64,000 nt of DNA from an uncultured Planctomycetia bacterium. Lineage in GTDB: Bacteria; Omnitrophota; Gorgyraeia; Gorgyraeales; Gorgyraeaceae. The stretch covers positions 11,208 to 75,207 of the forward strand of contig CAYPYS010000007.1 of the NCBI GenBank assembly GCA_964415355.1. The letters are read 5' to 3'. The position numbers and the translations under genes were made by a program. This document shows, one piece after another, positions 3,362 to 64,000 of this stretch. Position 1 is the first letter of the stretch; the number at the start of each line of letters is the position of its first letter. The notes below the pieces were generated by a model, which saw only the letters and a list, made by a program, of their open reading frames with translations, ran no database searches and had not been told where the DNA came from.

Positions 3362-3396
3362 CTTTACACTTTAACATTGTTAAAATGTAAAGTTAG
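3359..3396 (+). repeat. Palindromic repeat copy 2 (T1, fwd)
   Basis: taactttacactttaacattgttaaaatgtaaagttag; TAA is the htpX stop. Confidence 0.9.
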
Positions 3397-3420
3397 GTGG
3401 AGAAATTTTTTTATTTTTTG

Positions 3421-8346: not shown

Positions 8347-8382
8347 GTTTACACTTTAACATTGTTGAAATGTATACTTAAG
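8344..8382 (+). repeat. Palindromic repeat copy 6 (T1/T2 hybrid arms, fwd)
   Basis: taagtttacactttaacattgttgaaatgtatacttaag; TAA is the acyltransferase stop. Confidence 0.85.
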
Positions 8383-8400
8383 AGGGTAAATATTCACGTT

Positions 8401-9237: not shown

Positions 9238-9254
9238 ATTTAAAATGAAAAGAT

Positions 9255-9992: not shown

Positions 9993-10026
9993 CTTTACAT
10001 TTCAACAACGTTAAAGTGTAAAGTTA
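9990..10026 (-). repeat. Palindromic repeat copy 7 (T1, rev)
   Basis: taactttacatttcaacaacgttaaagtgtaaagtta; TAA is the lptB stop. Confidence 0.9.
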
Positions 10027-10048
10027 AAACGAGAAAGAATAGAACAAT

Positions 10049-11110: not shown

Positions 11111-11146
11111 AGTATACTTTTAACATTGTTGAAATGTATACTTAAG
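11108..11146 (+). repeat. Palindromic repeat copy 8 (T2, fwd)
   Basis: taaagtatacttttaacattgttgaaatgtatacttaag; TAA is the tig stop. Confidence 0.85.
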
Positions 11147-11152
11147 CGTTAT

Positions 11153-11175
11153 GTCATTCCCGTGTAAACGGGAAT
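11153..11175 (+). repeat. Second hairpin repeat family, copy 2
   Basis: gtcattcccg tgtaaa cgggaat, 7 nt after a T2-type palindromic repeat. It generates the spurious 'MSFPCKRES' extension of clpP. Confidence 0.7.
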
Positions 11176-11195
11176 CCAAAAACCAGGAGGCGTAT

Positions 11196-11798
11196 ATGTC
11201 AACATTGGTTCCTATAGTCGTAGAGCAATCGGATCGGGGCGAGCGCGCGTATGATATTTATTCAAGGCTTTTGAAAGACAGGATAATTTTTATCGGCGAC
11301 GCTATAAATGACCTTGTTGCGAATCTTGTAATTGCGCAGATGCTTTTTCTCCAGCAGGAAGACGCCGGCAGGGATATTAATATTTACATAAATAGCCCAG
11401 GCGGCGTAGTGACAGCCGGGCTCGCGATCTACGACACCATGCAGTTCGTGAAGCCGGACATCGCTACATTTTGTGTCGGGCAAGCGACCAGCATGGGAGC
11501 AGTGCTTCTGGCAGCAGGCGCGAAAGGCAAGCGCCACGCATTGCCTAACTCCAGGGTGATGATCCATCAGCCTTGGGGAGGCGTACAGGGCCAGGCCGCA
11601 GATATCGGCATACAGGCTAAAGAGATATTAAAGATGCGCGACAGGATTAATGAGATATTGGCAAAGCACACAGGTCAGAAATTAGATAAGATACAAAAAG
11701 ACACGGACAGAGACTATTTTATGGCAGCTAAAGAGGCAGAGGAATACGGACTCATAGACGAAGTAATTATCGGCGGAAAACCAGCAAAGAAGAAATAA
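11196..11798 (+). CDS. clpP: ATP-dependent Clp protease proteolytic subunit
   Basis: '[22 protein letters not shown]', catalytic Ser in '[12 protein letters not shown]', His in 'MIHQP'. The ATG at 11196 with SD aggagg is preferred; the ORF-track start 11151 lies in a hairpin repeat. Confidence 0.95.
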
Positions 11799-11815
11799 CC
11801 TCACGCTTAACATTG

Positions 11816-11856
11816 CTTAAGTATACATTTCAACAATGTTAAAGTATGTACTTAAG
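11816..11856 (-). repeat. Palindromic repeat copy 9 (T2, rev)
   Basis: cttaagtatacatttcaacaatgttaaagtatgtacttaag; 18 nt after the clpP stop. Confidence 0.85.
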
Positions 11857-11880
11857 ACGCAGGAAAGGCAAAAGAGAGAG

Positions 11881-13011
11881 ATGAAGAATTATTTATTAAC
11901 GCCTGGGCCGACACCGGTGCCGCCAGAGTCTTTAACTGCAATGGCAAGGCCAATGATCCACCACAGGACTCCGCAGTTCCAGGCTATATTAAAGGAAACA
12001 GAAGAAGACCTTAAGTATGTATTCGAAACCAAGGACCCTGTTTTGATATTTGCTGCTAGCGGCACAGGCGCAATGGAAGGGACAGTGTGCAACCTGCTTT
12101 CTCCCGGAGACAAGGCAATAGTCGTAAGAGCCGGGAAATTCGGAGAGAGATGGGGCGAACTGTGCACAGCGTATGGCATAGAATTTATCCCTGTGGATGT
12201 GGAATGGGGCAAGGCAGTCGAGCCGCAGGAGATAAAAAAGATTTTAGATAAAGAATCTAAGATAAAGGCAGTTTATGTAACACTCTGCGAGACATCCACG
12301 GGTACCGCTACAGACATACGGAAAATCGCAGCGATAACAAAGGACACTCAGGCGGTTTTGGTCGTGGATGCGATAAGCGCGCTCGGCGCAGTGCCTCTGA
12401 AGACTGACGAGTGGGGCATTGATGTTGTAGTATCTGGTTCGCAGAAAGGGCTGATGATCCCGCCAGGCCTTGCGTTTGTGAGTTTAAACGAAAAGGCATG
12501 GAAGCTTGCTGAGGTATCGAAGCTGCCAAAATACTATTTTAATTTCAAGGCGTACAAAAAATCTATCGAGAAAAACGACACGCCTTATACGTCTGCCGTG
12601 AATCTTATAATAGGCCTGAACGAGGCGCTGAGGATCATCAGGAGAGACGGGCTTGCGAATGTAATTGCCCGACATAAAAAGCATGCGCAGGCTGTGCGCT
12701 CGGCTTGCAACGCCCTGGGGCTCGAGCTTTTCGCGCCAGACGCGTATTCTGACGCTGTGACTTCGGTTAAGGTGCCAGAGGGGATTGACGGCGCGAAGCT
12801 TGTAAAGACAATGCGCGACAAATACGGCGTGGCGATCGCTGGCGGACAGGCGCAGCTAAAAGGAAAGATATTCAGGATAGCTACCATGGGCTACATTACG
12901 GCAGCGGATTTAAAAATAGGCATAGAGACTCTTGAGACAGCACTTGCAGAGTCAGGATATAAGTTTGAAAAAGGCGCAGGAGTCAAGGCGCTGGAGAAGG
13001 GGTTGAGCTAA
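11881..13011 (+). CDS. Class V aminotransferase (serine-pyruvate/phosphoserine aminotransferase type)
   Basis: 'LLTPGPTPVP' N-terminus, PLP-Lys context 'SGSQKGLMIPPG', adjacent to serA. Start 11881 is preferred over 11836, which lies in the repeat. Confidence 0.8.
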   Translation: MKNYLLTPGPTPVPPESLTAMARPMIHHRTPQFQAILKETEEDLKYVFETKDPVLIFAASGTGAMEGTVCNLLSPGDKAIVVRAGKFGERWGELCTAYGIEFIPVDVEWGKAVEPQEIKKILDKESKIKAVYVTLCETSTGTATDIRKIAAITKDTQAVLVVDAISALGAVPLKTDEWGIDVVVSGSQKGLMIPPGLAFVSLNEKAWKLAEVSKLPKYYFNFKAYKKSIEKNDTPYTSAVNLIIGLNEALRIIRRDGLANVIARHKKHAQAVRSACNALGLELFAPDAYSDAVTSVKVPEGIDGAKLVKTMRDKYGVAIAGGQAQLKGKIFRIATMGYITAADLKIGIETLETALAESGYKFEKGAGVKALEKGLS

Positions 13012-27114: not shown

Positions 27115-28599
27115 CTATCGGGGCTTGGGCGTGTAATAGTAGATGCTTGCGTGGTAAAAATCCTGCCTTTCTTTTTGAATATAAAAATTTTCAATATAAT
27201 TTAACATGGGTTCTGGATCCTTGACCCAATGCGTAACGACGAGTCGGAGATTATTTTTATGCGCAGCAAGATCTTCTTCGTCAAATAGATTTTTAAGATC
27301 AAAAAGATCATTTACGGCCCTTACCTTGTTCCCCCATTTATAGTAGGTATCTATGAAGTTCATTTCTGATGTTTTATTGTTCATAATGTAAAGAGGTAAA
27401 TCAGCATAGTATGCGAATGGCATCTTTTGTGCAATCGGGGCTATTATGGTTATATCTCCGAGTTGAGTATTATCGCTCATATAGGCTACCATATGCCTCC
27501 ACGGTATCTTTGAATCTTTGTTATAATAGGTATGCAGAGATGATGCGGTAAATATTACTATAAGTAGAATCAGGCAATTTTTAAGATATTTGGTCTTTAT
27601 AGAGCTAAGACCCTTGGCAGCAAAGATATAATAAGCTGCAGAGGCAAAGATGGCATATCTTGTTACGTAAACAGGAAAAAACATAACTGAGAAGAAGAAA
27701 AGAGTGACTATAGGAAAACCCAGCCACAAGAGTAAAAGCCAACCCTTTTTTTTCTTAAGTAGCATCAGACCCCTTAGGGAAAGCAGGAACAATGTTGAAT
27801 TATATATCCAGAAAAGCCATATAGACATGGTATTTTTCATATACTTACCAGCAGCGCCGGAGCCAAAGACAACAAAAGTCTTTGCTAAAGCGCTTAGATC
27901 TGTCTTGGCTATCCAGGCAGTCCTGTCGCCAATATCAGGCATTTGCTGTAAATGGCCGATCTGGATTATGGCCCAGGGCAGAAGGGTCAAAAGAATTATC
28001 GATTGGATGGTAAGCCATTTAACAATATTGCGTCGTCTTATGAAGAAAAAATAATATAGATTCTGAAAGACGAGGACAAAAAGGCCTAATATATGAGTGA
28101 AGACAAGCAGGCTGTTTACGATAATATAGAAAACAAATGTTTTAGTTTTATTTTTTTTCATTATTTTGATAAAAAGCAACATAGAAAGAATGGTCAAGAA
28201 TACAAATAGGCTATAAGACCTTGCTTCCTGGGAGTAATAAATATGAAACATTGATACGGAAAGAATAAATGCACTGTATAACCCGACCTTTCTATCCAGC
28301 AGATCTCGCCCTACCTTATAAATAAGAAGAATAGATAGCGCCCCAAAGATCACGGATAAGAATCTTACCGCAAATTCACTTTTGCCAAAAAGGCCTGTCC
28401 AGCATTTCAATAGTATGAAATAAAATGGCGGAGTATGGTAGGTGCGGGTAGATATGTAGGATAGCTTTGCTCCAGATACTGCAATACTTTGCGCTTCATC
28501 ATACCAAATGCTTTGAGAGGATAAATTATATACCCTGAGGCATATGCCCAGCAGTATAATGAAGGATAGGATTATATAAGGACTGTTTCTTTTTATCAT
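27115..28599 (-). CDS. Glycosyltransferase family 39 (ArnT/PMT-like) polytopic membrane protein
   Basis: 494 aa with more than 10 hydrophobic segments and a first-loop 'WYDEAQS' motif typical of GT-C/GT39. This is the only minus-strand gene in the window. Confidence 0.7.
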   Translation of the reverse strand: MIKRNSPYIILSFIILLGICLRVYNLSSQSIWYDEAQSIAVSGAKLSYISTRTYHTPPFYFILLKCWTGLFGKSEFAVRFLSVIFGALSILLIYKVGRDLLDRKVGLYSAFILSVSMFHIYYSQEARSYSLFVFLTILSMLLFIKIMKKNKTKTFVFYIIVNSLLVFTHILGLFVLVFQNLYYFFFIRRRNIVKWLTIQSIILLTLLPWAIIQIGHLQQMPDIGDRTAWIAKTDLSALAKTFVVFGSGAAGKYMKNTMSIWLFWIYNSTLFLLSLRGLMLLKKKKGWLLLLWLGFPIVTLFFFSVMFFPVYVTRYAIFASAAYYIFAAKGLSSIKTKYLKNCLILLIVIFTASSLHTYYNKDSKIPWRHMVAYMSDNTQLGDITIIAPIAQKMPFAYYADLPLYIMNNKTSEMNFIDTYYKWGNKVRAVNDLFDLKNLFDEEDLAAHKNNLRLVVTHWVKDPEPMLNYIENFYIQKERQDFYHASIYYYTPKPR

Positions 28600-43895: not shown

Positions 43896-43924
43896 TTGAC
43901 AAGAAAGCGTTTTCGCGGTATAAT
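43896..43924 (+). promoter_or_regulatory. Perfect-consensus sigma70 promoter in front of giant ORF 1
   Basis: TTGACA (43896-43901), exactly 17 nt, TATAAT (43919-43924). Confidence 0.7.
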
Positions 43925-43942
43925 TTATATATTATGTAGTAG

Positions 43943-43962
43943 TTTATAAATATATTTATAAA
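43943..43962. promoter_or_regulatory. Perfect 20-bp A/T palindrome (candidate operator) in the 5' UTR of giant ORF 1
   Basis: TTTATAAATATATTTATAAA equals its own reverse complement. It lies between the -10 box and the SD. Confidence 0.4.
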
Positions 43963-43980: not shown

Positions 43981-44064
43981 ATGTATCGCAGGCGCATCAA
44001 CAGGATCACATCCATCGTAACTCTTCTGACGTTTCTTTCCACCAGCACCCTTTACGCAGCACCA
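43981..44064 (+). other. Shared 28-aa N-terminal leader, copy in giant ORF 1
   Basis: MYRRRINRITSIVTLLTFLSTSTLYAAP versus ORF3 MTWKIIRKITSIVILITFLSTNVIYAAP: 17/28 identical with no gaps. Basic n-region, hydrophobic core, and a YA|AP cleavage-like end. Confidence 0.8.
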
Positions 44065-47000
44065 TCCAGCCGTTCATTCTTCAAAAATAAAAAAGTAGAT
44101 CACAAGAAACTAAGTGACCAGAACGAAGACTTTATAGAGAAAAAAGGCTCTGTCCTTGATATTAAAAATGGCGCAAAGCCCCAGGCGCGCAGGAAAGAGG
44201 CAAGGGCCCTCCTTTCTTCCCATCTAAAGGATTTATCGCAGATACATATACCTTCTGAACTGGGAAGGATAATAGAGGTGTATGAAGGGGAAAAGGATAA
44301 ACGACAAGGAACAAGGCCTTTGATCGTTCATATCCAGGACCTCCACACAAATCCAGAGGCAGAACTTAACCTTGCCAAGATCCTCGAAATACTTATAAAA
44401 GACTATAGCATGAATCTGGTCTGCTCAGAAGGCGCAGACGGAGAGGTGGATACTTCTTCTGTCTCAAGCTTTCCGGATTACTCTGTGAGAGAAAAAGTAG
44501 CCAGGCTCTTCATAGATTCAGGAGAATTGACAGGAGAGGAGTATTTATCGATAACAAAATATCCTGATCTAGCCATATGGGGCATAGAGGATAGAGATAT
44601 ATACTTTAAAAACATAATAGAGTTCAATAAGATTATAAAATTCTCTCCCCAAAGCCACGTATTTATATCCCAGGCCAAAAAGGCCCTGGAGCAACTTAAG
44701 CCCAAGATATGCTCAAGGGAACTAAAAGACCTGGACCAGAAAGAAGCCTCCTATGATAACCAGGAGATAGAGGTAGCCCAGTATCTTAATTACCTCGCTG
44801 ATTATGTTGAGGCACTCGGAATCAATACAAAAGACTATAGAAATGTGAATCTATTGGCTGAATCCATAGACCAGGAAAAGACTATAAATCAACAAAAGAT
44901 AATGGATGAGTCGCAAAGTCTTTTGTTGAACCTTCAGGTCTCTCTTTCTAATAAAAGGATAAAAAAAGAGCAGGATGAACTTATGGCGCGCGCAGAGCTT
45001 TTCAGGGACCAGAAGATCTCACCCTTTTCATTCTATAGCTACTTAAAAGCCTTGGCTCTCAGGCACCTGAAAGAAGGTCTTTCAAAATACCCTGATCTTG
45101 ATCGCTACATCACCTATCTCACGAATGTAAACTCTTTAGACCAGGTGAAACTCTTCAATGAACTAAAAGATCTCGCATACGATATAAAACAGGCCCTCGC
45201 AAGGACGCCTGAACAAAAAAGATTTGTAAAGGCCCTCAGGAACATAAACTTTTTAGAATCTTTCTTTAACCTCAAGGTCTCAAACGAAGAATTAGACTAT
45301 TACCTGGCCAATAGAGACTCCCACAAGGTAGGATTCTTTCAGGATTTTCTGAAACCCACCCTGAAAAAATACAGACTATCGAGTTTCATAGATTATAATA
45401 CAGACCTTATAGACTCAAAGCTTCCTATCCTCGAAGACTTCTACAAGACTGTCAAAGACCGCGACGTAGCAATGGTCAAAAACTCCCTCTCTGAGATCGA
45501 AAACCGCAATTCAAAAGTCTCTGCCCTGATCGCAGGCGGTTTTCATACAAAGGGCATAACAACTTTACTAAGAGACAAAAACTATTCCTATATAGTAGTA
45601 TCCCCATACTCATCCACTGACATAGACGAGGAGAATTATCATTTTCTATTATCAGGTAAACGCAAGCCGCTGACAGAGCTATTGAATAAGCTTGATGCGT
45701 CAGAAATCGTAGACGGGCTTTCCTCAAGCTTAAGGGTAACGGTGGGTTTTGATCTTGATATGCACGATGGCTTAAGAGAAAAGGTTGCCCCTGTGCTCGC
45801 AGAAGAATTAGGCGTATCAGTGGAAGAGGTAACCCCGGAAAATATTCTTGGGAGAATAGTTCCGGTTCTTCTATTGCACAGAGAGGCCTCGAGCTGGTTT
45901 AGTAATTTTGACAAGATTATCGGCGTAGAGATAAAGCGGACTGCCAAGGGACTTGTAATGAAGATATCCCCTAAAGGTAGAGGGACAAAAGCAAGATATA
46001 TTATGGCCACAAGAGATAGCGGGTTTACTCTTGCGACAGCACGTGACTTCAATGCTGCAGGCGCGACAGTAATAGCTGTTGCTCCCGAGAAGAGCCCTCT
46101 GGCAGATACAGAGGATGATTCTTCACTTACCTATGCCGGAGGAGAGCAAGCTAGAAACGTAACTACTTATAATGACCTATCAGCGCAGGGCATCAGGGAT
46201 TCACTGGCGACACTTTCTCGCGACGGCGCTATTTTAGTCCTGGCTGACGGCACAAAGTGGACTGTGAGTGAATGGGATAGCCAGAGCAAGACCGCAGCGC
46301 TTACTGGTCTAGGAGATGCAAAAGGAGAAACGCAATACATATCAGTGCTGGATGACGGCCTGGTTGTCATAAGTGCTACTCCTCTTATTCGCGACTATAC
46401 AGTCGTGGCCATTGCATCGGATGCTTCTGTTTCTGTCAAGATAAAGGCATTGGCAGAGGATATTTTTACGAGTCCTGACAGGGCGCTTGCGACAGCCGCG
46501 CTTCAATATGGCCTGACCCGCGGATTCCAGCCGCTTATCAATTACATATCAGCGCTTCTTGAGAGAGAAGGCGTAAAGGCCCATCCTGAGACAGAGGTCG
46601 TAATGCTGGATGATGTCTTTGAAGGAGAAGATATTTTAGCAAGACTCCTCATAGAAGAAGGCGATATAGTTGTTTACAATAGCGGAAACCTGTCCGAGCA
46701 GGACAAAAGGATTTATACCAATCGTGGCGCAGAGTTAATAGAGATGGACCTCTCGACACCCGTTGGGATGCACAAGTTGTCCGGGCGTCTCGAGAACGGT
46801 AGTATAGACGCGGACCGCGTTAAATTTATTCAGGTTTTGTCCGAGAGAAAACTAGGGACAGAAACTATGTCGCAGTCTGCAAGAGTCGCGCTTTTAGCAC
46901 TGGCCAGAGAGCATGATTTTCTTTTAGTAGAAGACGCCAGGTACAGGGATCCTGTTTTGTCAGAAAACGAAAGTTTAAAGGCCATCGATTACGAAGGCCT

Positions 47001-48084
47001 TGATAGCAGGGTCGTGCAGCTTCGCAGTCTTTCGCAGCTTTTTGGGAAAGACGTAGAGATAGGTTCTGGTTATGCCGTGCTTCCGGCCGCGCTCGCGGTA
47101 AAGTTTGAGGCGACTAAAGGCTCTGTAACGCTTCACCCGAATTCAATGGCGCAGATACTTGTATATAAGGAATTATTGAGGAGATACGGAGATAGAGACA
47201 TTGAATTTTCTGAACTTACTGAGGCAGAGAAAAATCCGGAATTACCGGCCTGGCTCTCGGATAAATTATCTGACTATGGCAGAGGCATCAAGCTTTCAGA
47301 GATAAGAAGGATCCTGAAACTCATGGCCGACCCTGATTTGATTTCATTGGCCGGAGGCATACCTGCCGCCGAACTGTTTCCTTACGAACAGACCTATGAA
47401 CTTATTGCAGAATTCGGCGAAGGAGACTGGAGAACGGCTCTGACTGCTTCTCACAGTCAGGGCATTGAGAGGCTCAGGGCATTGGCAGCAAAGACTGTTG
47501 GCGCCGGCGCAGAGAATGTGCTTATAACAGATGGCTCGCAAGAGGGCCTTGACCTTTTAGGCCGCTTTGTCAGGTCTATTTCGTCAGAGAGGGATGACAG
47601 GGCTAATGAGGTCATAACCCAGAAGCCGACATACCTTGGATTCATGAGCGCTGCGGATCCATATGGATGCGAGGTCCAACCGTATGATCTGAATAATCTA
47701 GAAGGCATTGAAGAACTTAGAAAAGATCTGAGGACGAGAGCTGATGCCGGAGATGCCCTTCCTTCTCTTATGTATATAATGCCTACCTTTGGCAATCCAA
47801 ACGGAGACGTAATGAGTTTAGAGGAAAGGGTAAGGCTTTTGGAGGTAGCAGACGAGTTTGACATAGCCATTGCCGAAGACAATCCATATGGAGCGCTTAG
47901 ATACGAGGGGGAAGCTATCCCTACCTTGCTTGAGTTATCAAGAGAATCAGGCAATGCCACTGTTTTATACCTTGGCACAGTGTCCAAGACATTTACCCCG
48001 GGCATGAGGATAGGCTGGACAGTAGGGCCTGTGGAAATAATACAGCGTTTAACAGCATACAAGGAAGAGACGGTAAAAAGGTAG
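43981..48084 (+). CDS. Giant fusion ORF 1 (1367 aa): signal-like leader, unknown (possibly TraB/Tiki/ChaN-like) N-region, unknown middle, degenerate plus canonical class I aminotransferase modules; ends at a frame break
   Basis: Uninterrupted 4.1-kb ORF. ATG 43981 follows SD aaaggggg and a consensus promoter. 'ISLAGGIPAAELFP', 'MPTFGNPNG', 'AEDNPYG' and 'GTVSKTFTPGMRIGW' are aminotransferase (Aro8/LysN-type) motifs. See the domain features below. Confidence 0.8.
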   Translation: MYRRRINRITSIVTLLTFLSTSTLYAAPSSRSFFKNKKVDHKKLSDQNEDFIEKKGSVLDIKNGAKPQARRKEARALLSSHLKDLSQIHIPSELGRIIEVYEGEKDKRQGTRPLIVHIQDLHTNPEAELNLAKILEILIKDYSMNLVCSEGADGEVDTSSVSSFPDYSVREKVARLFIDSGELTGEEYLSITKYPDLAIWGIEDRDIYFKNIIEFNKIIKFSPQSHVFISQAKKALEQLKPKICSRELKDLDQKEASYDNQEIEVAQYLNYLADYVEALGINTKDYRNVNLLAESIDQEKTINQQKIMDESQSLLLNLQVSLSNKRIKKEQDELMARAELFRDQKISPFSFYSYLKALALRHLKEGLSKYPDLDRYITYLTNVNSLDQVKLFNELKDLAYDIKQALARTPEQKRFVKALRNINFLESFFNLKVSNEELDYYLANRDSHKVGFFQDFLKPTLKKYRLSSFIDYNTDLIDSKLPILEDFYKTVKDRDVAMVKNSLSEIENRNSKVSALIAGGFHTKGITTLLRDKNYSYIVVSPYSSTDIDEENYHFLLSGKRKPLTELLNKLDASEIVDGLSSSLRVTVGFDLDMHDGLREKVAPVLAEELGVSVEEVTPENILGRIVPVLLLHREASSWFSNFDKIIGVEIKRTAKGLVMKISPKGRGTKARYIMATRDSGFTLATARDFNAAGATVIAVAPEKSPLADTEDDSSLTYAGGEQARNVTTYNDLSAQGIRDSLATLSRDGAILVLADGTKWTVSEWDSQSKTAALTGLGDAKGETQYISVLDDGLVVISATPLIRDYTVVAIASDASVSVKIKALAEDIFTSPDRALATAALQYGLTRGFQPLINYISALLEREGVKAHPETEVVMLDDVFEGEDILARLLIEEGDIVVYNSGNLSEQDKRIYTNRGAELIEMDLSTPVGMHKLSGRLENGSIDADRVKFIQVLSERKLGTETMSQSARVALLALAREHDFLLVEDARYRDPVLSENESLKAIDYEGLDSRVVQLRSLSQLFGKDVEIGSGYAVLPAALAVKFEATKGSVTLHPNSMAQILVYKELLRRYGDRDIEFSELTEAEKNPELPAWLSDKLSDYGRGIKLSEIRRILKLMADPDLISLAGGIPAAELFPYEQTYELIAEFGEGDWRTALTASHSQGIERLRALAAKTVGAGAENVLITDGSQEGLDLLGRFVRSISSERDDRANEVITQKPTYLGFMSAADPYGCEVQPYDLNNLEGIEELRKDLRTRADAGDALPSLMYIMPTFGNPNGDVMSLEERVRLLEVADEFDIAIAEDNPYGALRYEGEAIPTLLELSRESGNATVLYLGTVSKTFTPGMRIGWTVGPVEIIQRLTAYKEETVKR
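44300..45610 (+). other. Unknown N-region of ORF 1 with weak TraB/GumN/Tiki/ChaN-like end motifs
   Basis: 'LIVHIQDLHTNPEAE...LVCSEGADG' near the start and 'ALIAGGFHTKGITTLLRDKNYSYIVVSP' near the end resemble the two conserved blocks of that superfamily. The assignment is by eye only. Confidence 0.3.
46470..47190 (+). other. Degenerate aminotransferase large-domain copy (module 1)
   Basis: 'LQYGLTRGFQPLINYISALLEREGV', 'LVEDARY' and 'KGSVTLHPNSMAQILVYKELL' align by eye with class I aminotransferase blocks. The NPxG and SxSK motifs are not preserved. Confidence 0.5.
47290..48081 (+). other. Canonical class I (Aro8/LysN-type) aminotransferase module 2, truncated ~30 aa after the PLP lysine
   Basis: 'ISLAGGIPAAELFP', 'ITDGSQEGLDLL', 'KPTYLGF', 'MPTFGNPNG', 'AEDNPYG', and 'GTVSKTFTPGMRIGW' (Lys codon 47986-47988). 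Confidence 0.75.
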
Positions 48085-48089
48085 GCTTT

Positions 48090-51000
48090 GTGCCTGGCTG
48101 GCCGTTTTTAGGAGAGTCAAATCAGATCAGGCTGTCTTTCCCGACAAACTCCCCTGATATTATAGACGGCGCAGTAAAGGCAGTTAGTATTGCCATAAAG
48201 GACAGCATGGGCAAAGGCACCCTGGCTATGGAAGGCCAGGTCCCTGCTGCTGATCTCGAGATCCTTACTAACTTTGGGACAGCCGGATGGCGAGGCACTG
48301 ATTTTACAGACGGCAATGTCAGGCGCATGGCACAGGCTGTTGCCGAAGTAGGGATAGCAGAAATCAATAAGCCTGTTTCTGAGATTCGCATGGCTGTCGG
48401 ATATGATGCAAGGCCTGGTGCCAGGGAAGATGCTATCCTCCTAACAGAGGTTCTGGTAGCGAACGGCATACACGTTGATTTCATAGATCAGGTATTGCCT
48501 TCACCCGTAATGATAGAGGTAACGCACGGAAGCGTTCCTGATTCAGAAAGATATGATCTAACGGTTTATTTTACCGCAAGTCATAATCCCGTGTATCAAT
48601 CGCTTGACCCGCTTAAGCAGTATAAAGGTATAAAGATATTAATAGAGGGTGTTCCTGCCGGCGATGAGTTTACCTCAAAGATATCAGCTCGAGCAAATGA
48701 CCTGGCCAAGAATGCCACATATAAATATATTCCCTTTGATCAGATTCCGGATATGCTTATTACGCATGACGTGGATCTTATTGCAAAAGATAGAGCTCGA
48801 CTTGAAAAAGCCTTTGGGCTTTCAGATTATGGAGTAAAAATAGCCAGATTATTTACTATATTTCCTAATTTGACGATTCGCATAAGTCCGATGAACGGTG
48901 CGACCGTGGAACAGATCGCTATATTCGATAAAATAGGCCTACCTGTAGTTTTTTATGATACCGCGCCTTTGCATGAAGTTATAGCCAGCGGAGAATACGA
49001 GCTTCAGACTGCAGACGGGATAATGAAAGGACCTGATCCGACAAAACCCTATAATCTTAATGCAGAGATGTTAAAAGATACAGAAGGGCAGGATGTCATA
49101 AAGTTTCTTATTGACGGAGACGGGGACCGTCTTGTTGTCGAGGATATAAACGGCAGGCCGATCACGCCTAATGAAATCGGTCTTATCATCGCCCATTATC
49201 TCCTGGAGCACAAGGGCGAGGAAGGTTACGTCGTCCGCACTTTGCCTACTACGAGAATGCTGGATCGTCTCGCAAGAAAATTTGGAATGCCTCTCGCGCA
49301 GACAGGAGTCGGCTCAAAGAACTTCGGGCCTTATACTGTTCAAGGGACCGAGCAGCGTCTTATCGTTGCCGTTGAAGAGAGCGGACATGTTTTCTTTAGA
49401 TTAGGCGATGAGATATTTGTCGACCATGCAGTAGCCGAGGCCTTGATCCTGCTCGATATCATGGCAACGACAGGCAAGACATTGACCCAGTATCTTGAGG
49501 AGGTCGAAAGAGAGCTGGGGACTATTCATTATAAACGGGATGCCGTGGCCAAGGAATTAGCGGTCCCTGGCCTGAAGCGCGGGCTATTGTGGCTGCGCAA
49601 TAATGATCCTGAGCTTTTGGCGCGCGCAATCGCAGATGAACTGGGTATGGATTTGAAAGGTTTTGATCCATTGGATAAGACCGGTGTCCTTGTAACCTTT
49701 GAAGATGATCAATGGATTTTACCTCGCGCATCAGGCACGACAAATACTATAAGGATTTACGCTGAGACGAGTTCTCAGGAAGATCTGGAAAAATGGATAA
49801 GCGGAGCAGAAAGGGTTTTGGTAAAACTTGTCAATGATATGGCTGCTCAAGGCATACTGGACAGGTCTCCGGATATCTGGTCGCATGTTATAGAAAGAGG
49901 AAAATCTCTCGCAGGCGATATCGTGAAGTGGCTCGGCTGGGTAGATGCGCCTGTGAGATTTTTGAAACGGATGTCAAAGATTAGAAGCTTGAAGTCAGAG
50001 CTTGCAGAGGAAGGCATAACCAATGTCGTTGTCCTTGGCACCGGAGGATCAGGCCTGGGTATAGGGACTTACGCCGAGGTCTTTGAAAAAGATAATTTAA
50101 TAGTCATTGATTTAGAAGATCCTCAGGGCATACAGAATGCAATGGCATGGGTCGATGAAAGGGGTTGGGATAAGACGATCTTTACTGTGCAGAGCAAATC
50201 CTGGGGCACTACTGAAACAAGAAACGCAGAGGCAGTTTTCAGGCAGGTCCTGGCTGATCGGATAGGGGCTGAAAATGTAGCCCGGCATTTTATAGCAGTG
50301 ACTGACGCAGGCAGGATAAAGGGAGAAGAGAGGGCTAATTTTAGGGAAATATTTGCGACTAATTATCCCGGAGATGCCAGGAAAGGTCGCGATATAGGTG
50401 GCAGATATTCTTCAGATTCCTTCTTTAGTCTTGTTCCGGCTGAATTAGCAGGCATACCCCATGAAGAGCTTTTAGTGGATGCCCGCGATGAATATAACCA
50501 GTTCAGGCGAGAGCTTGGAGAATATATAGGTGTCCGCATAGGCGCAGAGCTTAGCAGGTTCCACGGCCTTGGCAGAAATAAAATTACCTTTATATTAGAT
50601 AAAGGCCTTGAAGCATTTGGACCGTGGGTGCAGCAGCTTATAAATGAATCCGTAGGCAAGAACGAAGATACCGTAGTCTGTGTTACCGGAGAAGAATTTT
50701 CAGGAGATAGTTCTGTGTATGGGGATGACAGGGTCTTTGTGAAGATCGCTATAGGTAAAGGTCCTGCTATGCAAGTCACAGAACAAGGCATTGTTCTCAT
50801 AGTCGAAAGTAAAAATGACATAAATAGATTGCAATATAGGTTCAAGGTAGCTACTGCTATCCTGGCAAATCTAATGGGTGTGCACCCGTTTAATCAGCCG
50901 TTTGTCGAGAGCAGTAAATGGATTACAAAGGGTCTCCTGGATTCGGAGTTGACTCCTGAGCAGCTCACAGCAGAGCTTGTCGTAGCCGCATCTGAAAATT

Positions 51001-51899
51001 TAAAGAAATACGAAGGAGCAGAGGTCGCTATGCATTACACAGGAAGGACAGAAGACGCTATTGACATTGACCTGGAAACTGCTTCTGTGGAAGATGTATT
51101 GGCAGCATTTCTGGCAACAATAGAGTCAGGGGATTATATCTATCTTTCTCCTTATACATTTGATTCTCCTGCGCTGCAAAAGGCCTTTTCTGAGATAAGG
51201 AGTATTATAAGAGATAATCATCCTGCTCATCCAGCCACGCTTTTTGGCATTGGCTCAAGGAGCCAGCATTCCGACAATCAGCTTAATAACGCCACTGACC
51301 AGGCAACGGTATTGGCGTTTACCTTTGATTCGGCCGAAGGTGTTGATAGGGCAGTGCCCGGTAAAAATTATACACTGGCTCAGGAAAACATGGCGCATGC
51401 ATTGGGAACGGTAGGCGCGCTGGAGGATAAGGGAAGAAGGGTCATGAGGATCCACCTTTCCGATGAGTACAGGCAGGACATAACAAAATTAACAGCACTC
51501 TTTGAGAAAGCCGTTGCAAGGATGCGCGGAATGGAATTAGTCAGGTCATCGAGTAAGCAGCAGGCCGCGTCAATGGAACAGATCCTGGTCGTTCCCGCAA
51601 ACAAGGTAATAGCCGATAAAGAGGGTTTTGAAAAATGGATGTCATCCGGCCGCCAGGAAAATAACGCTGTGGTGATAGTAGCTTATGATGTCGACGAATA
51701 CAATCGGGTCAAGGAATTCGGGGACATTGCCTATATAAGGGTAGTCGGAAAGGATATTAGCGAGGAATACGACCTTAAGCTGCTCCAGATGTTTGCATTG
51801 TTCGGAAAAGATAATATGTTTGGCGGATTTATACTTGGGACACCGGCTGACCTGGATGATTTCAGATCAGTTTCCGAAGAGATATCCTCTGGCGTCTAA
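48090..51899 (+). CDS. Giant fusion ORF 2 (1269 aa): aminotransferase C-terminal remnant, alpha-D-phosphohexomutase, glucose-6-phosphate isomerase, shared C-terminal domain
   Basis: GTG start 5 nt after the ORF1 stop, in the -1 frame. 'FVPGWPFLGESNQIRLSF' (aminotransferase end); 'FGTAGWRG', 'TASHNP', 'DGDGDR', 'EESGH', 'RASGTTNTIRIYAE' (PGM/PMM); 'GTGGSGLG', 'SKSWGTTET', 'GGRYSS' (PGI). Confidence 0.8.
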   Translation: MPGWPFLGESNQIRLSFPTNSPDIIDGAVKAVSIAIKDSMGKGTLAMEGQVPAADLEILTNFGTAGWRGTDFTDGNVRRMAQAVAEVGIAEINKPVSEIRMAVGYDARPGAREDAILLTEVLVANGIHVDFIDQVLPSPVMIEVTHGSVPDSERYDLTVYFTASHNPVYQSLDPLKQYKGIKILIEGVPAGDEFTSKISARANDLAKNATYKYIPFDQIPDMLITHDVDLIAKDRARLEKAFGLSDYGVKIARLFTIFPNLTIRISPMNGATVEQIAIFDKIGLPVVFYDTAPLHEVIASGEYELQTADGIMKGPDPTKPYNLNAEMLKDTEGQDVIKFLIDGDGDRLVVEDINGRPITPNEIGLIIAHYLLEHKGEEGYVVRTLPTTRMLDRLARKFGMPLAQTGVGSKNFGPYTVQGTEQRLIVAVEESGHVFFRLGDEIFVDHAVAEALILLDIMATTGKTLTQYLEEVERELGTIHYKRDAVAKELAVPGLKRGLLWLRNNDPELLARAIADELGMDLKGFDPLDKTGVLVTFEDDQWILPRASGTTNTIRIYAETSSQEDLEKWISGAERVLVKLVNDMAAQGILDRSPDIWSHVIERGKSLAGDIVKWLGWVDAPVRFLKRMSKIRSLKSELAEEGITNVVVLGTGGSGLGIGTYAEVFEKDNLIVIDLEDPQGIQNAMAWVDERGWDKTIFTVQSKSWGTTETRNAEAVFRQVLADRIGAENVARHFIAVTDAGRIKGEERANFREIFATNYPGDARKGRDIGGRYSSDSFFSLVPAELAGIPHEELLVDARDEYNQFRRELGEYIGVRIGAELSRFHGLGRNKITFILDKGLEAFGPWVQQLINESVGKNEDTVVCVTGEEFSGDSSVYGDDRVFVKIAIGKGPAMQVTEQGIVLIVESKNDINRLQYRFKVATAILANLMGVHPFNQPFVESSKWITKGLLDSELTPEQLTAELVVAASENLKKYEGAEVAMHYTGRTEDAIDIDLETASVEDVLAAFLATIESGDYIYLSPYTFDSPALQKAFSEIRSIIRDNHPAHPATLFGIGSRSQHSDNQLNNATDQATVLAFTFDSAEGVDRAVPGKNYTLAQENMAHALGTVGALEDKGRRVMRIHLSDEYRQDITKLTALFEKAVARMRGMELVRSSSKQQAASMEQILVVPANKVIADKEGFEKWMSSGRQENNAVVIVAYDVDEYNRVKEFGDIAYIRVVGKDISEEYDLKLLQMFALFGKDNMFGGFILGTPADLDDFRSVSEEISSGV
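48264..49830 (+). other. alpha-D-phosphohexomutase (PGM/PMM/GlmM-family) module
   Basis: Catalytic-Ser loop 'TASHNP' (48573-48590), metal loop 'DGDGDR' (49113-49130), sugar loop 'EESGH', phosphate loop 'RASGTTNTIRIY'. Confidence 0.8.
49900..51540 (+). other. Glucose-6-phosphate isomerase (SIS-fold PGI) module
   Basis: 'VVVLGTGGSGLG', 'SKSWGTTET' (50193-50219), 'IGGRYSSDS', 'GIGSRSQHSDNQL'. Confidence 0.7.
51576..51896 (+). other. Shared C-terminal domain (~107 aa), copy in giant ORF 2
   Basis: EQILVVPANKVIADKEGFEKW...AVVIVAYDVDEYNRVKEFGDIAYIRVVGKDISEE...NMFGGFILG...DLDDFRSVSEEISSGV. About half the positions are identical to the ORF3 C-terminus. Confidence 0.8.
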
Positions 51900-52079: not shown

Positions 52080-52520
52080 ATGAAGATATCTACAAGAATC
52101 AGATATGGCACGCGTTTGATGCTGGAATTAGGGCTTTCTTATAAGGAAGGCCCTATTTTTTTAAAAGATATTGCCAGGAAGCAGGAGATCTCTGAAAAAT
52201 ATTTAAGCCAGATCATCATTCCTCTAAAGGCTGCAGGCCTGATCAATACTTATAATGGCGCTCACAGCGGATATGTCCTAGCTAAATCTCCGCAAGAAAT
52301 AACAGTGAAAGAGATAGCAGAGATCGTAGAAGGGAATTTCGATCTTATAGAATGTGTGACTAACCCTTCCGGATGTGCACGCGCAGCTATGTGTGCGACA
52401 AGAGATCTATGGGATGATCTGGGCAGGACGATCGCGGAAAAACTCGATTCATTCACTATTAAGGATTTAATAGATAGATCCAAAGAAAAACAGGAAAATT
52501 CAACAGCATATAATATCTGA
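52080..52520 (+). CDS. Rrf2-family (IscR/NsrR-like) transcriptional regulator with a three-Cys cluster-binding motif
   Basis: 'MKISTRIRYGTRLMLELG' N-terminus, wHTH 'ISEKYLSQIIIPLKAAGLI', Cys motif 'CVTNPSGCARAAMC'. The stop lies 25 nt before giant ORF 3 with no repeat between. Confidence 0.85.
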   Translation: MKISTRIRYGTRLMLELGLSYKEGPIFLKDIARKQEISEKYLSQIIIPLKAAGLINTYNGAHSGYVLAKSPQEITVKEIAEIVEGNFDLIECVTNPSGCARAAMCATRDLWDDLGRTIAEKLDSFTIKDLIDRSKEKQENSTAYNI

Positions 52521-52545: not shown

Positions 52546-52629
52546 ATGACCTGGAAAATTATAAGAAAAATTACTTCTATTGTAATACTCATAACTTTTC
52601 TATCTACCAATGTCATATACGCGGCTCCG
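52546..52629 (+). other. Shared 28-aa N-terminal leader, copy in giant ORF 3
   Basis: MTWKIIRKITSIVILITFLSTNVIYAAP. The nucleotide sequences of the two leaders differ at many synonymous sites, so the peptide is conserved rather than recently copied. Confidence 0.8.
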
Positions 52630-55600
52630 GGGCCCCGCAAGACACTAAGGGTGCCTCTGGGGTTTGCGAGAGAAAAGCTTTTAGAGCAGGAGCAAACAGG
52701 GCTTCCCACAAAGGAAATGCTTCTTATGATGGCCCAGGCAGTAGCCATGAGGATGGATGACGAATCCATACTCATGGATCTAGGGACTACTTTTTTCAAC
52801 ACAGCCTTTCGCAGAAATCTCGGCTCTCCTATCGAGATCCGCAGGAATAAAAATACAGGTACAGTCCATATCCGTTACAATGACAGATATATATCCATAA
52901 CAAGAAGCGGAAACATATCCGTGTCAAGCAGAATAAACTTTGATAAAGCCGAGCTCGTGATTGCCAGCATCAAGCCGCTTGTCGCATCCTCTTCTGATCC
53001 GACTGATAAAAAAGACAGGACAATAGGGTCTCTTCTCGGACTAATGGAGACATTTGCAGATCTCGGGCTCAAGCCAGGAGAGAAGATAACCATAAATGAC
53101 ATAATCCCTGAAAGAAAAAAGCAGGACGGTACATTGTATTCTCGTACGACAGTCTCAAGAGAATTTAAGGATGCAGTGGCGCTTGACCTTTTGAGGCTCA
53201 CAGGCAACAAGATAAAAAATAGCAATGAATATGAAGTCCTGAAGTCTTTTACGAGAGAACAGCTTAGTAGATTGCCGGGGCATATAAGGAAAAAGTTAAA
53301 CAGGGGCAGGATCAGATCTGATGAGATAGAAGAGCTCAGGCGCATATTCATAGCTGAGACATTAATGGGGCAAGGGACATTGCTGAAGGTATTCCTGGCA
53401 GGCCTTGCAGGTTTTCAGGAGGCGCTTGCAGACATACCTTATGATCTTTCAGGCGCAAATACTGAGACGGTCCAGAGTTTATTCACGGCTGTTGAAAACA
53501 TAGTTTTCCTGGCAAGGGATTTTGATAAAAAAGATCCTGCCTATGCCGAGGCTTATATCTATGAAAGCTTAGGGTTTGTTGATATTGATGGGAAAAGAAG
53601 ACTTGCTCTTGTCATCACGCCTTTTGAGGACAGGAGAAAGACCGGGTCCCTGGATGTCCTGGTATTTGATTCGCTTCTATCCGCGAATTATACGAGCCAC
53701 GCAATAAAAGCGACAGAAATAGAAATGGTGTCTACTATTGTCGGACGCCTGGATGAAAAGGATATTATCTCGCTTTCTCTTAAGTTCAGGGCAGAGTATC
53801 TGGATAACCCTGATGGCCCTGGCACGAGCGACACAAGGCGATCTGCCAAGGATTTTTTCCTGTATTTTGCCTCAAAGCGTAACGCAACCCAGGAAATATT
53901 GGATTTGGACGAAGAACTGATAGATGGTCTGGAGGGAAGGGACCTGGAAATAAAAGAACGCATGGCGCGCCTGAAAGAGGGCGTGTCGGATAAAGATCTT
54001 CTGGACGAATGGTTTATAGAAATTATGCAGGGAAAAGATACTCTTGTTCAGTACCTGTTATACACAGGGGACGCGGCTACATTCTGGTATGATTTACTGC
54101 TGGAGCTTGATTATACGCGCGCAATAAATGAGATGTTTTTATCAAGGCCTGACGCAATGACAACTTATGCCAGAAATGCATACGAACAGGCAGTCGTGGC
54201 CTCATGGATTTATATTCACCGCGCTGATTTTGGATCGCCTTTAGGAGAGAGGGCAGCCGAGGACAGAATAGAGGATTTTCAGCTGGCCCTGACATGGGAC
54301 ACGCTTGGCATACCAGGCCAGAAGGCGCTTGGCATGACAAAGGCAGAGTTTCCTGTGTGCTTGAATTGTGTTGGAAGGCCCTGTCAGCATGGGCCGCTGG
54401 GAAGCGTTGCTGCCCAGACGCGCACAAGGTCGGGTTTCGCCTCAGGCATAAGGTCTTTGATAGAAGACAATAATGTCTCTGCCAGCGTTCAGTTAGAGGG
54501 CGTATTTATATCCGAAGGAGTTTCATACTTAACCCATTTATATAATTATGCTGAACTATTGCTTATAGACCAGGCAGACGTCACCAGGTGGATGAATATG
54601 ACAGCGAGGGAACTGGACAGCGAAATAAGGTTGTTGACAGATGATGCAGACGCAATAGATCAAGAGGCAAAAAACATCGCAGAGCCGCATTGCCCGTTAG
54701 AGGTTCCTATCGCGGATATGTTCAGGCTTATGCGGCAGGATAGATTTGAAGAGGCGCTTGAGATCTTGAATAACAGCAGTTTTCTTGCAGGTATCTTCGG
54801 GCTCGTATGTCCCCAGGAACACCTGTGTCAGGCCGCGTGCGTCCAGGGCAGGCTGAGCGACAGGCCTTTGCCCATAGATATAGGAAAATTAGAATATCTC
54901 ATAGAGCTTACTTATATGAGGATAAACGGAGAATTGCCTATGCCTGAGGTCGCACCATTTACAGGAAAGTATGTCGCGATTATAGGTTCTGGCCCGGCAG
55001 GACTTCAGGCAGCATATGACCTGGCAAGAGAGGGTCACAAAGTGGTTTTATTCGAGCACCTGCATAAGGTCGGAGGTGTTTTAGTATATGGTATACCTAC
55101 ATTCAGGCTTCCTCCCGAGCTCCTCGAAGAAAAGGTCAGGATACTTAAGGAGATGGGCGTAAACTTTGTCACGAATGCTATTATAGGAGAAGACGGTGCG
55201 TATACCATAGAGGAGATGAGAAGATCATTTGACGCAGTAATAGTGGGCGTTGGCGCAGGCCAGTCAAACAAGATGGAGATAAGAGGCAAGGTGGTCCTTC
55301 TCGACGAAAAAACAGGAAGGGCAAGATTAGAGGTGCCTGAATACGCAAAGAGAGTGCCGATACCGGGCAGGGCCTTGAATGGCATTTATTCAGCGTATCA
55401 TTTTCTTTCATGGACATATCTGATGAATGCAATAAAGCCGGGTTATGATACGCCCATACCGCTCTCAAAAAATATACTCCAAGCATTTACGGAATCCAGG
55501 GCTACAGGAGAGGAAAAAGAAGTTACTGTGGTCGTAGAGGGCATAGGAAACGTGGCGCTGGACAGCGGCAGGACAGCTCTCAGATGGATAAATGTCCTGA

Positions 55601-63905: not shown

Positions 63906-64000
63906 TTTTTGGAGAGTTTGATTCTGGCTCAGAACGAACGTTGGCGGCGTGGATAAGGCATGCAAGTCGAACGGTCCGCTTCGGCGGACAGTGGCAAAAG
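63906..64000 (+). rRNA. rrs: 16S ribosomal RNA, 5' end (partial, continues beyond the window)
   Basis: 'agagtttgattctggctcagaacgaacgttggcggcgtggataaggcatgcaagtcgaacgg' matches the universal 5' region (27F primer site, helix 1-5 sequence). The start is set by alignment of AGAGTTTGAT to E. coli position 8. Confidence 0.9.

Follow-up and report, generated by a model that had tools for sequence, protein, structure and literature searches.

In a 64,000-nt stretch of DNA from an uncultured bacterium of the Omnitrophota (GenBank assembly GCA_964415355.1, contig CAYPYS010000007.1, positions 11,208 to 75,207 of the forward strand; hereafter the window), two giant polyprotein genes open with similar N-terminal leaders that have the architecture of a signal peptide, placed ahead of enzymes that, from their motifs, look functional and cytoplasmic in type (Table 1). 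An earlier reading made from the letters of the window alone (the sequence-only reading) treated these leaders as a feature of two local genes. Both are indeed present, but such leaders mark a family of multi-enzyme polyproteins that extends across the Omnitrophota, and the leader-headed set, judged by its recognisable domains, carries most of glycolysis or sugar-phosphate metabolism together with pyruvate oxidation. We tentatively favour, at somewhat less than even confidence, the reading that the leader is a membrane-targeting tether which leaves these enzymes in the cytoplasm, because the enzymes need cofactors, no twin-arginine translocation (Tat) motif is present and a conserved charge cluster lies behind the leader.

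That the window holds two such leaders, one heading open reading frame (ORF) 1 and one heading ORF3, was confirmed by translation and by motif scans of the whole window: a six-frame regular-expression search recovered the same two copies only, and a degenerate back-translated DNA pattern of the leader motif matched the two leader sites and nothing else, with no match in 100 shuffles. The leaders are identical at 18 of their 31 N-terminal residues, and 13 of these 18 residues are encoded by different synonymous codons, the nucleotide identity of the leaders being 55%; their likeness has therefore been kept by selection on the peptide, and recent gene conversion between them was ruled out. Both initiation codons are preceded by a good Shine-Dalgarno sequence (AAAGGGGGA for ORF1, AAGGAG for ORF3), and a true start downstream of the leader, a possibility that the sequence-only reading had asked to be checked, is unlikely because the next in-frame Met lies only at residue 144 of ORF1 and residue 58 of ORF3. 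In predicted membrane-insertion energy over 19-mers the leaders score 1.2-2.0 kcal/mol and the next best segment of each giant protein at least 5.0. The leader is thus the sole membrane-capable 19-mer of each protein, and therefore nothing else in the chain could set its topology. On the same scale the cytoplasmic housekeeping proteins of the window score 5-19, and its lipoproteins, signal-bearing proteins and membrane proteins mostly -3.4 to 1.8. A leader-like N-terminus was present on none of the approximately 30 cytoplasmic housekeeping proteins of the window. As the starts are sound and cytoplasmic proteins score 5-19, the objections that the leaders are annotation artefacts, or that all proteins of this genome start in this way, both fail.

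The wider family was retrieved with a three-sequence leader profile, built from the region of the extended N-terminal module, which was run with HMMER against 1.84 billion representative proteins (E<=1e-3). Of the 24 matches obtained (numbered P here), 22 fall in the first 60 residues of their proteins, and the remaining two, P0006 and P0020, are low-complexity repeats and were rejected as artefacts. Ten of the 22 genuine matches are proteins of 1,063-4,237 aa, the upper value being the family maximum, and every member with a named source is from Candidatus Omnitrophota. When a hidden Markov model (HMM) of the leader was run against the 9,648 ORF segments of all fetched loci (numbered L), only leader-polyprotein genes matched, and there was no match among the OmpA, LptC, OEP and RND proteins of the same genomes. 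Word-index protein searches with the leader alignment returned one partial Omnitrophota protein, P0002, those with the N-terminal region of ORF3 only P0001, and those with the shared C-terminal domain described below nothing. P0001, almost certainly a chimera of assembly, comes from an ENA contig of 1,503 nt, is 99% identical to ORF3 residues 1-180 and then continues as an ABC-transporter ATPase. In a genome contig collection no match was found with degenerate DNA patterns of the leader, and both the strict and the relaxed pattern gave none in a metagenome contig collection; the strict pattern matches both window sites but is too narrow for variants such as P0002, and these collections probably lack the loci.

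At L098, from another species, the P0025 gene (499-7533, 2,344 aa) is followed after a gap of 14 nt by a PPDK-like gene (7547-12433, 1,628 aa), and each of the two has its own copy of the leader and of LRVPL. P0026, a member of 3,582 aa, is encoded on a contig that shares both the REP-like repeat and the JGI sample of origin with the window, so that the organism of the window, or a very close relative, has at least three tagged genes.

The conserved N-terminal unit spans approximately 40 residues and consists of a basic n-region, a Thr/Ser-rich hydrophobic core, TNxxY(A/G)AP, RxFxK and LRVPLxF. The n-region has a net charge of +2 to +6 in all 24 leaders aligned, and its last residue is basic, usually in the pair KK. 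The core follows the consensus (I/V)-S-(I/V)-x-T-L-I-T-F-(L/I)-x-T-N-x-x-Y-(A/G)-(A/V)-P and is continued by (S/E)-x-(R/K)-x-F-x-K. Two arrangements occur. In the first, that of ORF3, P0015, P0024, P0025 and the L098 PPDK-like gene, LRVP(L/V)xF follows directly after the leader unit, and in the second, that of ORF1, an N-domain of approximately 500 aa is inserted ahead of an LRVP(L/M)xF junction. The junction motif was found in 12 of 13 family genes scanned, always right after the leader or the N-domain. It gave a single match in 11 and none in P0013, which ruled out LRVPL as a repeated polyprotein cleavage site. The N-domain is 52-67% identical to its counterparts in 11 family members, proteins that are otherwise less than 50% identical, and carries the motifs HIQDLHTNPEA, CSEGAxGxVDTSSVSSFPD and GGFHT; the HIQDLH...GGFHT combination may resemble TraB/Tiki/ChaN-type domains, as a lead only. 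For this domain, neither Pfam scans of the 12 members aligned nor a search of PDB sequences with a profile gave anything above noise. An AlphaFold model of the N-domain region had a mean predicted local distance difference test (pLDDT) score of 64 and was confident only in a helical core (approximately 220-500), and Foldseek found nothing in the PDB for this model at E<=0.001.

The two giants of the window share both ends, since the C-terminal domain as well as the leader is alike in both: their C-terminal 145-150 residues (ORF2 against ORF3) are 45% identical (E = 1e-26). The same domain is terminal in P0009, P0013 and P0014, and weakly in P0018. AlphaFold gave no usable fold for two sequences of it (pLDDT 45). 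Beyond this domain, an (S/T)-G-(V/I/A) end was present in 7 of 12 C-termini inspected (STGI, SSGV, SSGV, ASGV, DTGV, DSGV and RSGA), encoded in the window at 51885-51896 and 63643-63654 and also seen in P0005, P0010, P0014, P0018 and at L098 12422-12433, with some of these proteins lacking the shared C-terminal domain. We note its similarity to PDZ ligands of class I or to tripeptides that act as C-terminal sorting signals.

Polyprotein 2 bears the cofactor-rich cargo. Its N-terminal half consists of the leader, an unassigned region, an NADPH-dependent GltD/NfnB-like flavoprotein (aa 598-1190) and a PyrK/NfnA-like region (approximately 1195-1660) with a C-x4-C-x2-C-x12-C motif, and the match to a fused PyrK-like/NADPH-dependent GltD-like (Nfn/Sud-type) protein is strong (E = 8e-93). 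These are followed by a 2x[4Fe-4S] ferredoxin (1955-2013), a PorB/thiamine diphosphate (TPP) domain (2250-2506) and a helix-hairpin-helix (2681-2707), and finally by PorG (2821-3011), PorA (3052-3420) and the shared C-terminal domain. Twenty-three of the 24 Cys residues of ORF3 fall in six motifs of iron-sulphur (Fe-S) type, the 24th lying in a VGDC stretch of the flavoprotein domain, and the TPP motif GDGG...ENNSG is present; the earlier prediction of at least five Fe-S clusters therefore holds for ORF3, which has motifs for six. When the unassigned stretches of ORF1 and ORF3 were scanned with Pfam at E<=1, only the helix-hairpin-helix, a weak aminotransferase-like region and a marginal DHODB Fe-S match were added. 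Breaks in ORF3 at L007 and L008 are scaffold Ns and were rejected as frameshifts. Within the unassigned N-terminal part (aa approximately 150-270, window approximately 52990-53350) we also noticed a module of approximately 120 aa that recurs by eye in P0010 (aa approximately 2150-2290), P0018 and the C-terminus of P0021; its pattern is G(R/S)xxGLLxTMA...RREFKDA...YEVLxSFTxxQLxxLP...RGRIRxxE, it looks winged-helix-like by eye, and a quick regular expression did not recover it.

The first leader has a different cargo. The sequence-only reading placed Fe-S, flavin and TPP enzymes behind both leaders, which proved wrong for polyprotein 1: there the leader and N-domain are followed by aminotransferase-like domains, phosphoglucomutase, glucose-6-phosphate isomerase and the shared C-terminal domain. 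In the window ORF1 stops inside an aminotransferase-like domain that the next ORF resumes in another frame. ORF1 and ORF2 together form a single polyprotein gene, interrupted by a polymorphic 1-nt frameshift, because single-base insertions in two related loci, +A at 48023 in L011 and +T at 48077 in L012, each fuse them into a single ORF (2,639 aa in L011); metagenome sequences of the same locus are otherwise 0-1 substitutions apart. The frameshift (region 48020-48092) adjoins a run of five A residues with AGG TAG behind it, and the break could be a polymorphism with compensatory mutations or a site of slippage-prone translation. The aminotransferase-like (MocR/class I-II) domain itself (window 47320-48160) keeps its SKTF lysine motif, but approximately 90 residues are missing from it between position 243 of the Pfam profile and the 'IRLSF' segment at its C-terminal end. 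Upstream of it (approximately ORF1 aa 835-1060) is another, weaker region of aminotransferase-like type. The aminotransferase-like module is probably inactive or remodelled. All four phosphoglucomutase loops of ORF2 are intact (TASHNP, DGDGDR, EESGH and RASGT), as is the isomerase motif GGRYS. Upstream of the gene the promoter agrees with the sigma-70 consensus at every position, and a closely similar one precedes the P0025 gene of the other species (L098, approximately 420-478 including a palindrome). A 16-mer of the palindrome TTTATAAATATATTTATAAA recurs upstream of the P0025 leader gene both in L098 and in L099 (L099 1227-1242), and by this recurrence the palindrome may be a conserved operator of a leader-polyprotein regulon.

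By the classical measures the leaders have the tripartite Sec layout that was ascribed to them, with a basic n-region, a hydrophobic core of approximately 11-12 residues and a polar c-region in the 24 leaders, a length of 26-27 residues when taken as a Sec-like signal, and A, G, S or T at position -1, after the Tyr, in every member. Their insertion energies across the family (1.2-3.7 kcal/mol) overlap those of the real signals and anchors of the window (-3.4 to 1.8), and their mean hydrophobicity is below that of control signals. At position -3, Leu or Ile occurs in 12 of 24, which is uncommon though tolerated, and a Pro at +2 excludes a site after the second Ala. Twenty-two of the 24 members have a net charge between +2 and +5 over the 18 residues after Y-A-A, so that the neutral or acidic stretch associated with export initiation is missing, whereas the exported proteins of the window (a lipoprotein at 1468, an LptC/LptA-like protein at 8362 and an OmpA-like protein at 19529) are by eye neutral or acidic after the signal. 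The cargo likewise departs from what could acquire its cofactors after export: ORF3 has six Fe-S motifs with TPP and flavin sites, and the family at large uses ATP, NAD(P)H and coenzyme A (CoA). Such cargo would seem incompatible with unfolded export. The topological paradox recognised by the sequence-only reading is thus real, and stronger than first stated, as the n/h/c layout coexists with the retention of all ORF3 Fe-S ligands, the TPP motif and the phosphoglucomutase loops. In an AlphaFold model of the N-terminal region of ORF1 the leader is a free helix (residues 2-25) followed by disorder.

Other signal classes were tried and rejected. As had been noted for the pair in the window, there is no shared twin-arginine consensus among the 24 family members: S/T-R-R-x-F-L-K is absent, the family pair is KK, RK, KR, NR, NK, TK and so on, and RR occurs in ORF1 only. 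A lipoprotein signal (signal peptidase II) is excluded by the lack of Cys at any leader end, the true lipoproteins of the window having LFSGC and LTTGC, and a type IV pilin or pseudopilin leader by the absence of the G|F(T/S)LxE motif from 24 of 24 leaders. A microcompartment encapsulation peptide was likewise rejected, as the hydrophobic moment is approximately 0.2, which is not amphipathic, and there are no shell genes among the housekeeping neighbours.

We infer from these data that the leader module would act as a co-translational membrane-targeting signal without export of the body of the protein. Through its hydrophobic core the giant chain would be drawn to the cytoplasmic membrane while it is being made and be held there, probably uncleaved, and the conserved, strongly basic stretch behind the core would stop translocation. 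The ATP-, NAD(P)H-, CoA-, TPP-, FAD- and Fe-S-dependent domains would then fold and act as a metabolon tethered to the cytoplasmic side of the membrane. As reported by Andersson & von Heijne (1991) and Kajava et al. (2000), Gram-negative bacteria fail to export by Sec a protein whose early mature part is positively charged. The housekeeping synteny of the leader-bearing giants and the consensus promoter are as expected of core metabolic genes, and the Fe-S-sensing type of Rrf2 regulator beside ORF3 is in line with functional cargo. If the enzymes stay inside, the family would represent a glycolytic and pyruvate-oxidation metabolon, tethered to the membrane and built as polyproteins. Several points weigh against the tether. 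By all classical criteria computed the leader looks like a cleavable Sec signal. The charge-block rule was derived from E. coli and may not hold in this phylum. The basic n-region favours an N-in orientation, in which a membrane-spanning anchor would put the body outside; a tether would therefore have to insert in a monotopic or stalled manner, or else be N-out despite 2-6 positive charges. Finally, DeepTMHMM predicts signal peptides on many multi-enzyme Omnitrophota giants, which were read as extracytoplasmic (10.64898/2026.06.07.730766). Computation does not single out one of the functions that the sequence-only reading had listed (a membrane anchor, targeting to a compartment, the surface or a host, or an assembly tag), and the tether is favoured on indirect evidence.

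It is possible, though doubtful, that the leader is a true Sec signal cleaved by signal peptidase I, by which the polyproteins would cross the inner membrane as unfolded chains and act in the periplasm, on the surface of the cell, or at or within a host or prey cell, so that an epibiotic nanobacterium would conduct an external or host-directed sugar metabolism. The canonical architecture with its invariably small -1 residue is what such a signal would show, and the leader evolves faster than the next domain yet keeps its pattern, ORF3 and P0015 having approximately 50% leader identity and clearly more beyond it by eye. Most long Omnitrophota proteins are predicted to have a signal peptide or transmembrane (TM) helices and are read as extracytoplasmic effectors, and the lineage is thought to be host-dependent. 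Secreted sugar-metabolising enzymes have precedents in the glycogen enzymes and phosphoglucomutase of Chlamydia and in microsporidian hexokinase. The likeness of the (S/T)-G-(V/I/A) end to a PDZ ligand also points this way, as a lead only; bacterial PDZ proteins are mostly periplasmic. The cargo speaks against export. ORF3 needs six Fe-S clusters, flavins and TPP, with all ligands conserved, and we know of no extracytoplasmic route of Fe-S assembly besides Tat; PFK, PGK, PPDK and the ABC1 kinase need ATP or ADP, and pyruvate:ferredoxin oxidoreductase depends on CoA and ferredoxin. Further points against export are the strong positive charge of the early mature region in nearly all members, the Leu or Ile at -3 in half, and the absence of flanking secretion-system genes from the six contexts examined. 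Were the enzymes exported all the same, this would overturn the rule that Fe-S- and nucleotide-dependent enzymes are either cytoplasmic or exported by Tat, and would point to an externalised or host-directed metabolism.

It is unlikely, in our estimate, that a dedicated and hitherto undescribed targeting system, consisting of the N-terminal module and perhaps also of the C-terminal domain and SGV end, sends the whole glycolysis-to-acetyl-CoA set, its Fe-S, TPP and flavin enzymes included, outside the ordinary cytoplasm, whether to the periplasm, to the cell surface or host interface, or to a glycosome-like body. Its implication would be either a non-Tat supply of cofactors to exported redox enzymes or an 'external' energy metabolism in an epibiotic nanobacterium. 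Distinctly unlikely is the reading in which the leader is no membrane signal but a tag, one of two 'bookends' with the C-terminal domain and SGV end, that would assemble the polyproteins into a supramolecular body or direct them to a dedicated compartment or partner, in the logic of glycosomal peroxisomal targeting signals (PTS) and microcompartment encapsulation peptides. One tag does mark a whole pathway, the same proteins have a second conserved terminus, the LRVPLxF junction is nearly universal among the family genes, and S11, F18, T/N21-22, Y25, P28 and R31 are conserved well beyond generic hydrophobicity while the codons of the window pair have diverged. The helix is, however, not amphipathic, AlphaFold does not dock it onto the N-domain, no shell, encapsulin or other compartment genes were seen in the window or related loci, a hydrophobic N-terminus leaving the ribosome would be captured by the signal recognition particle regardless, and cells of this phylum are approximately 0.2-0.3 um across, which makes internal compartments less likely.

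We consider it very unlikely that the leader is a degenerate Tat-type signal exporting folded, cofactor-loaded enzymes. Folded export would remove the cofactor problem, and the family does have a moderately hydrophobic and hydroxyl-rich core with basic residues on both sides, the one immediately ahead of it mostly belonging to a pair. The pair is, however, mostly KK, which abolishes transport in studied Tat systems, and otherwise NR, NK, TK, SK, AK or FK, with no consensus motif; a folded substrate of approximately 400 kDa is far beyond known Tat cargo, and glycolytic enzymes outside the cell would still be without ATP and NAD. The chance that these are gene-calling artefacts or decaying pseudogenes with meaningless N-termini is negligible, for although ORF1 and ORF2 are frameshifted in the window and the aminotransferase-like domain is some 90 residues short, both starts have good Shine-Dalgarno sequences, the promoter is of consensus type, the leader is kept in approximately 20 independent proteins from different assemblies and sources, two different 1-nt insertions elsewhere restore the frame, and the catalytic motifs are intact.

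The genomic setting is that of a housekeeping region, with the genes for trigger factor and H+-PPase and with clpP, purA, dxr, rseP, ispG, proS, nusA, infB, trpS, scpAB, aro genes, ispH, rpsA and tyrS. Among GTDB genomes, InfB has its best matches mostly in metagenome-assembled genomes (MAGs) of Candidatus Omnitrophota (53-62% identity), and the strain of the window is present in several ENA and JGI metagenomes. The leader-bearing giants are core chromosomal genes, because they share conserved housekeeping synteny: in both L104 (10001-18223), from an Omnitrophota MAG, and L105 (10001-21223) such a gene lies between proS and rimP-nusA-infB. In the window this slot is taken by a minus-strand PMT_2 glycosyltransferase gene (27115-28599), and the giant genes are found instead after tyrS, beside the rRNA operon, the 5' end of a bacterial 16S rRNA gene (63906-64000) starting approximately 250 nt after ORF3. 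A palindromic element of approximately 36 nt, TAACTTTACACTTTAACGTTGTTGAAATGTAAAGTT, occurs at 38 sites in the 64 kb (19-nt core, <=3 mismatches) in both orientations, among them 3669, 7385, 13023, 19437, 30604, 42653, 43865, 51911 and 63669. It mostly begins at or right after a stop codon, so that almost every gene ends in this hairpin, and it gives spurious 'MLKCKV' ORF starts at TTG (8362, 13027, 39501, 40175 and 42657). The same-strain locus L001 has 18 copies and L100 also has the element, which is absent from the other Omnitrophota loci compared; it is a genome-specific repeat of repetitive extragenic palindromic (REP) or terminator-like type and of unusual density.

Table 1. Features of the two polyprotein loci in the window, and enzyme domains found behind the leader in other family members
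Feature	Position	Strand	Basis
Sigma-70-type consensus promoter TTGACA-17-TATAAT, upstream of polyprotein 1 gene	43896..43924	+	12/12 consensus positions
Perfect 20-nt palindrome TTTATAAATATATTTATAAA, candidate operator between promoter and Shine-Dalgarno sequence	43943..43962	.	seen on both strands
Leader 1, residues 1-28, MYRRRINRITSIVTLLTFLSTSTLYAAP	43981..44064	+	translation, motif scans, insertion energy, family alignment
Extended ORF1-type N-terminal module, leader plus basic stretch PSSRSFFKNKKVDHKKLS	43981..44115	+	family alignment
Polyprotein 1 gene (2,639 aa intact; split in the window, 43981-48084 / 48090-51899)	43981..51899	+	related assemblies
Conserved N-domain, approximately 500 aa, between leader and LRVxV junction	44218..45705	+	family alignment
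Junction motif LRVTV, polyprotein 1 (family consensus LRVP(L/M)xF)	45730..45744	+	motif scan
Frameshift junction (GTAAAAAGGTAG...GTG) within truncated aminotransferase domain	48073..48092	+	comparison with L011, L012
Shared C-terminal domain, polyprotein 1, end SSGV	51462..51896	+	likeness to ORF3 C-terminus
Rrf2-family regulator (IscR/CymR-like), C-x6-C-x5-C motif, 25 nt upstream of ORF3	52080..52520	+	family match
Polyprotein 2, ORF3, 3,703 aa	52546..63657	+	domain scans
Leader 2, residues 1-28, MTWKIIRKITSIVILITFLSTNVIYAAP	52546..52629	+	translation, motif scans, insertion energy, family alignment
Junction motif LRVPL, directly behind leader 2	52645..52659	+	motif scan
Shared C-terminal domain, polyprotein 2, end STGI	63211..63654	+	likeness to ORF2 C-terminus
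P0005: M48 peptidase and ABC1 kinase behind leader			Pfam
P0009: PFK and PGM behind leader			Pfam
P0010: PGM, transaldolase and PFK behind leader			Pfam
P0013: PGK behind leader			Pfam
P0014: PGI behind leader			Pfam
P0018: PGM and transaldolase behind leader			Pfam
P0021: UGPase and PGM behind leader			Pfam
P0025: GAPDH, TIM and PGK behind leader			Pfam

Compared with known systems, the leaders share with Sec signals cleaved by signal peptidase I the basic n-region, the core of approximately 11-12 residues, the polar c-region, the small -1 residue and the length of 26-27 residues, and differ from them in their family-specific conserved residues, the basic early mature region, the Leu or Ile at -3 in half of the members and the dependence of the cargo on the cytoplasm. 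With the Tat signals of periplasmic Fe-S and molybdo-enzymes they have in common a cofactor-rich redox cargo, a core of moderate hydrophobicity and basic residues after it, but not the twin-arginine consensus, the pair being mostly KK or xK/xR. N-terminal bitopic anchors with a cytoplasmic body do exist, for example E. coli ZipA. Like these, the leader proteins have a single N-terminal uncharged stretch (approximately 22 residues), a very basic juxtamembrane segment and a large body of cytoplasmic type; in contrast to the nearly uncharged N-tail of ZipA-type N-out anchors, the leaders have 2-6 positive charges, and their strongly hydrophobic part is short. Kinetoplastid glycolytic enzymes are sent to glycosomes by PTS1 and PTS2, and bacterial microcompartments use encapsulation peptides. 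There too one short terminal signal serves a whole pathway, and the leader family has in addition a C-terminal end that resembles a tripeptide; the machinery and the domain of life are different, the leader helix lacks amphipathic character and compartment genes were not seen. The analogy is one of logic only.

The closest relatives of the system described here lie within the phylum itself. Omnitrophota are abundant, uncultured, ultra-small and probably host-dependent, and earlier papers had raised the puzzle of the role and place of their very long proteins. West-Roberts et al. (bioRxiv 10.1101/2023.11.21.568195) reported TIM, PGI, FBPase, PGM and aldolase domains on giant Omnitrophota proteins (the 'Archaeovorin' giants), which were predicted to be extracellular, a localisation that the authors doubted. 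A 2026 preprint (10.64898/2026.06.07.730766), with a catalogue threshold of at least 10 thousand amino acids (kAA), recognised a class of 'multi-enzyme metabolic cluster' proteins, found that 94% of long proteins bear signal peptides or TM helices, and left the choice between inside and outside undecided. The claim of the sequence-only reading that such leaders on such enzymes would be unusual therefore stands in part: we did not find the leader family, or its junction and C-terminal signature, described in the searchable literature, but enzyme domains on giants bearing signal peptides or TM helices had already been noted (bioRxiv 10.1101/2023.11.21.568195, 10.64898/2026.06.07.730766). The leader polyproteins resemble these giants in their phylum, in the presence of unrelated enzymes of cytoplasmic type (PGM, PGI and TIM) on one chain, and in the puzzle of localisation that their signal peptides or TM helices pose. 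They differ in size, being 1.6-4.2 kAA rather than at least 10 kAA (2,639 and 3,703 aa in the window), and in topology, as Archaeovorins have numerous TM helices and a SecA_DEAD domain, in contrast to the one hydrophobic segment of the leader polyproteins, which lack a SecA-like domain. The leader polyproteins also have in common a conserved leader, the LRVPLxF junction, the SGV end and a C-terminal domain, none of which we found described in those two studies; the leader can be used as a search key that lists the tagged enzyme set in any genome, and together with the junction and the C-terminal bookend it turns the question of the long proteins of the Omnitrophota into a tractable object.

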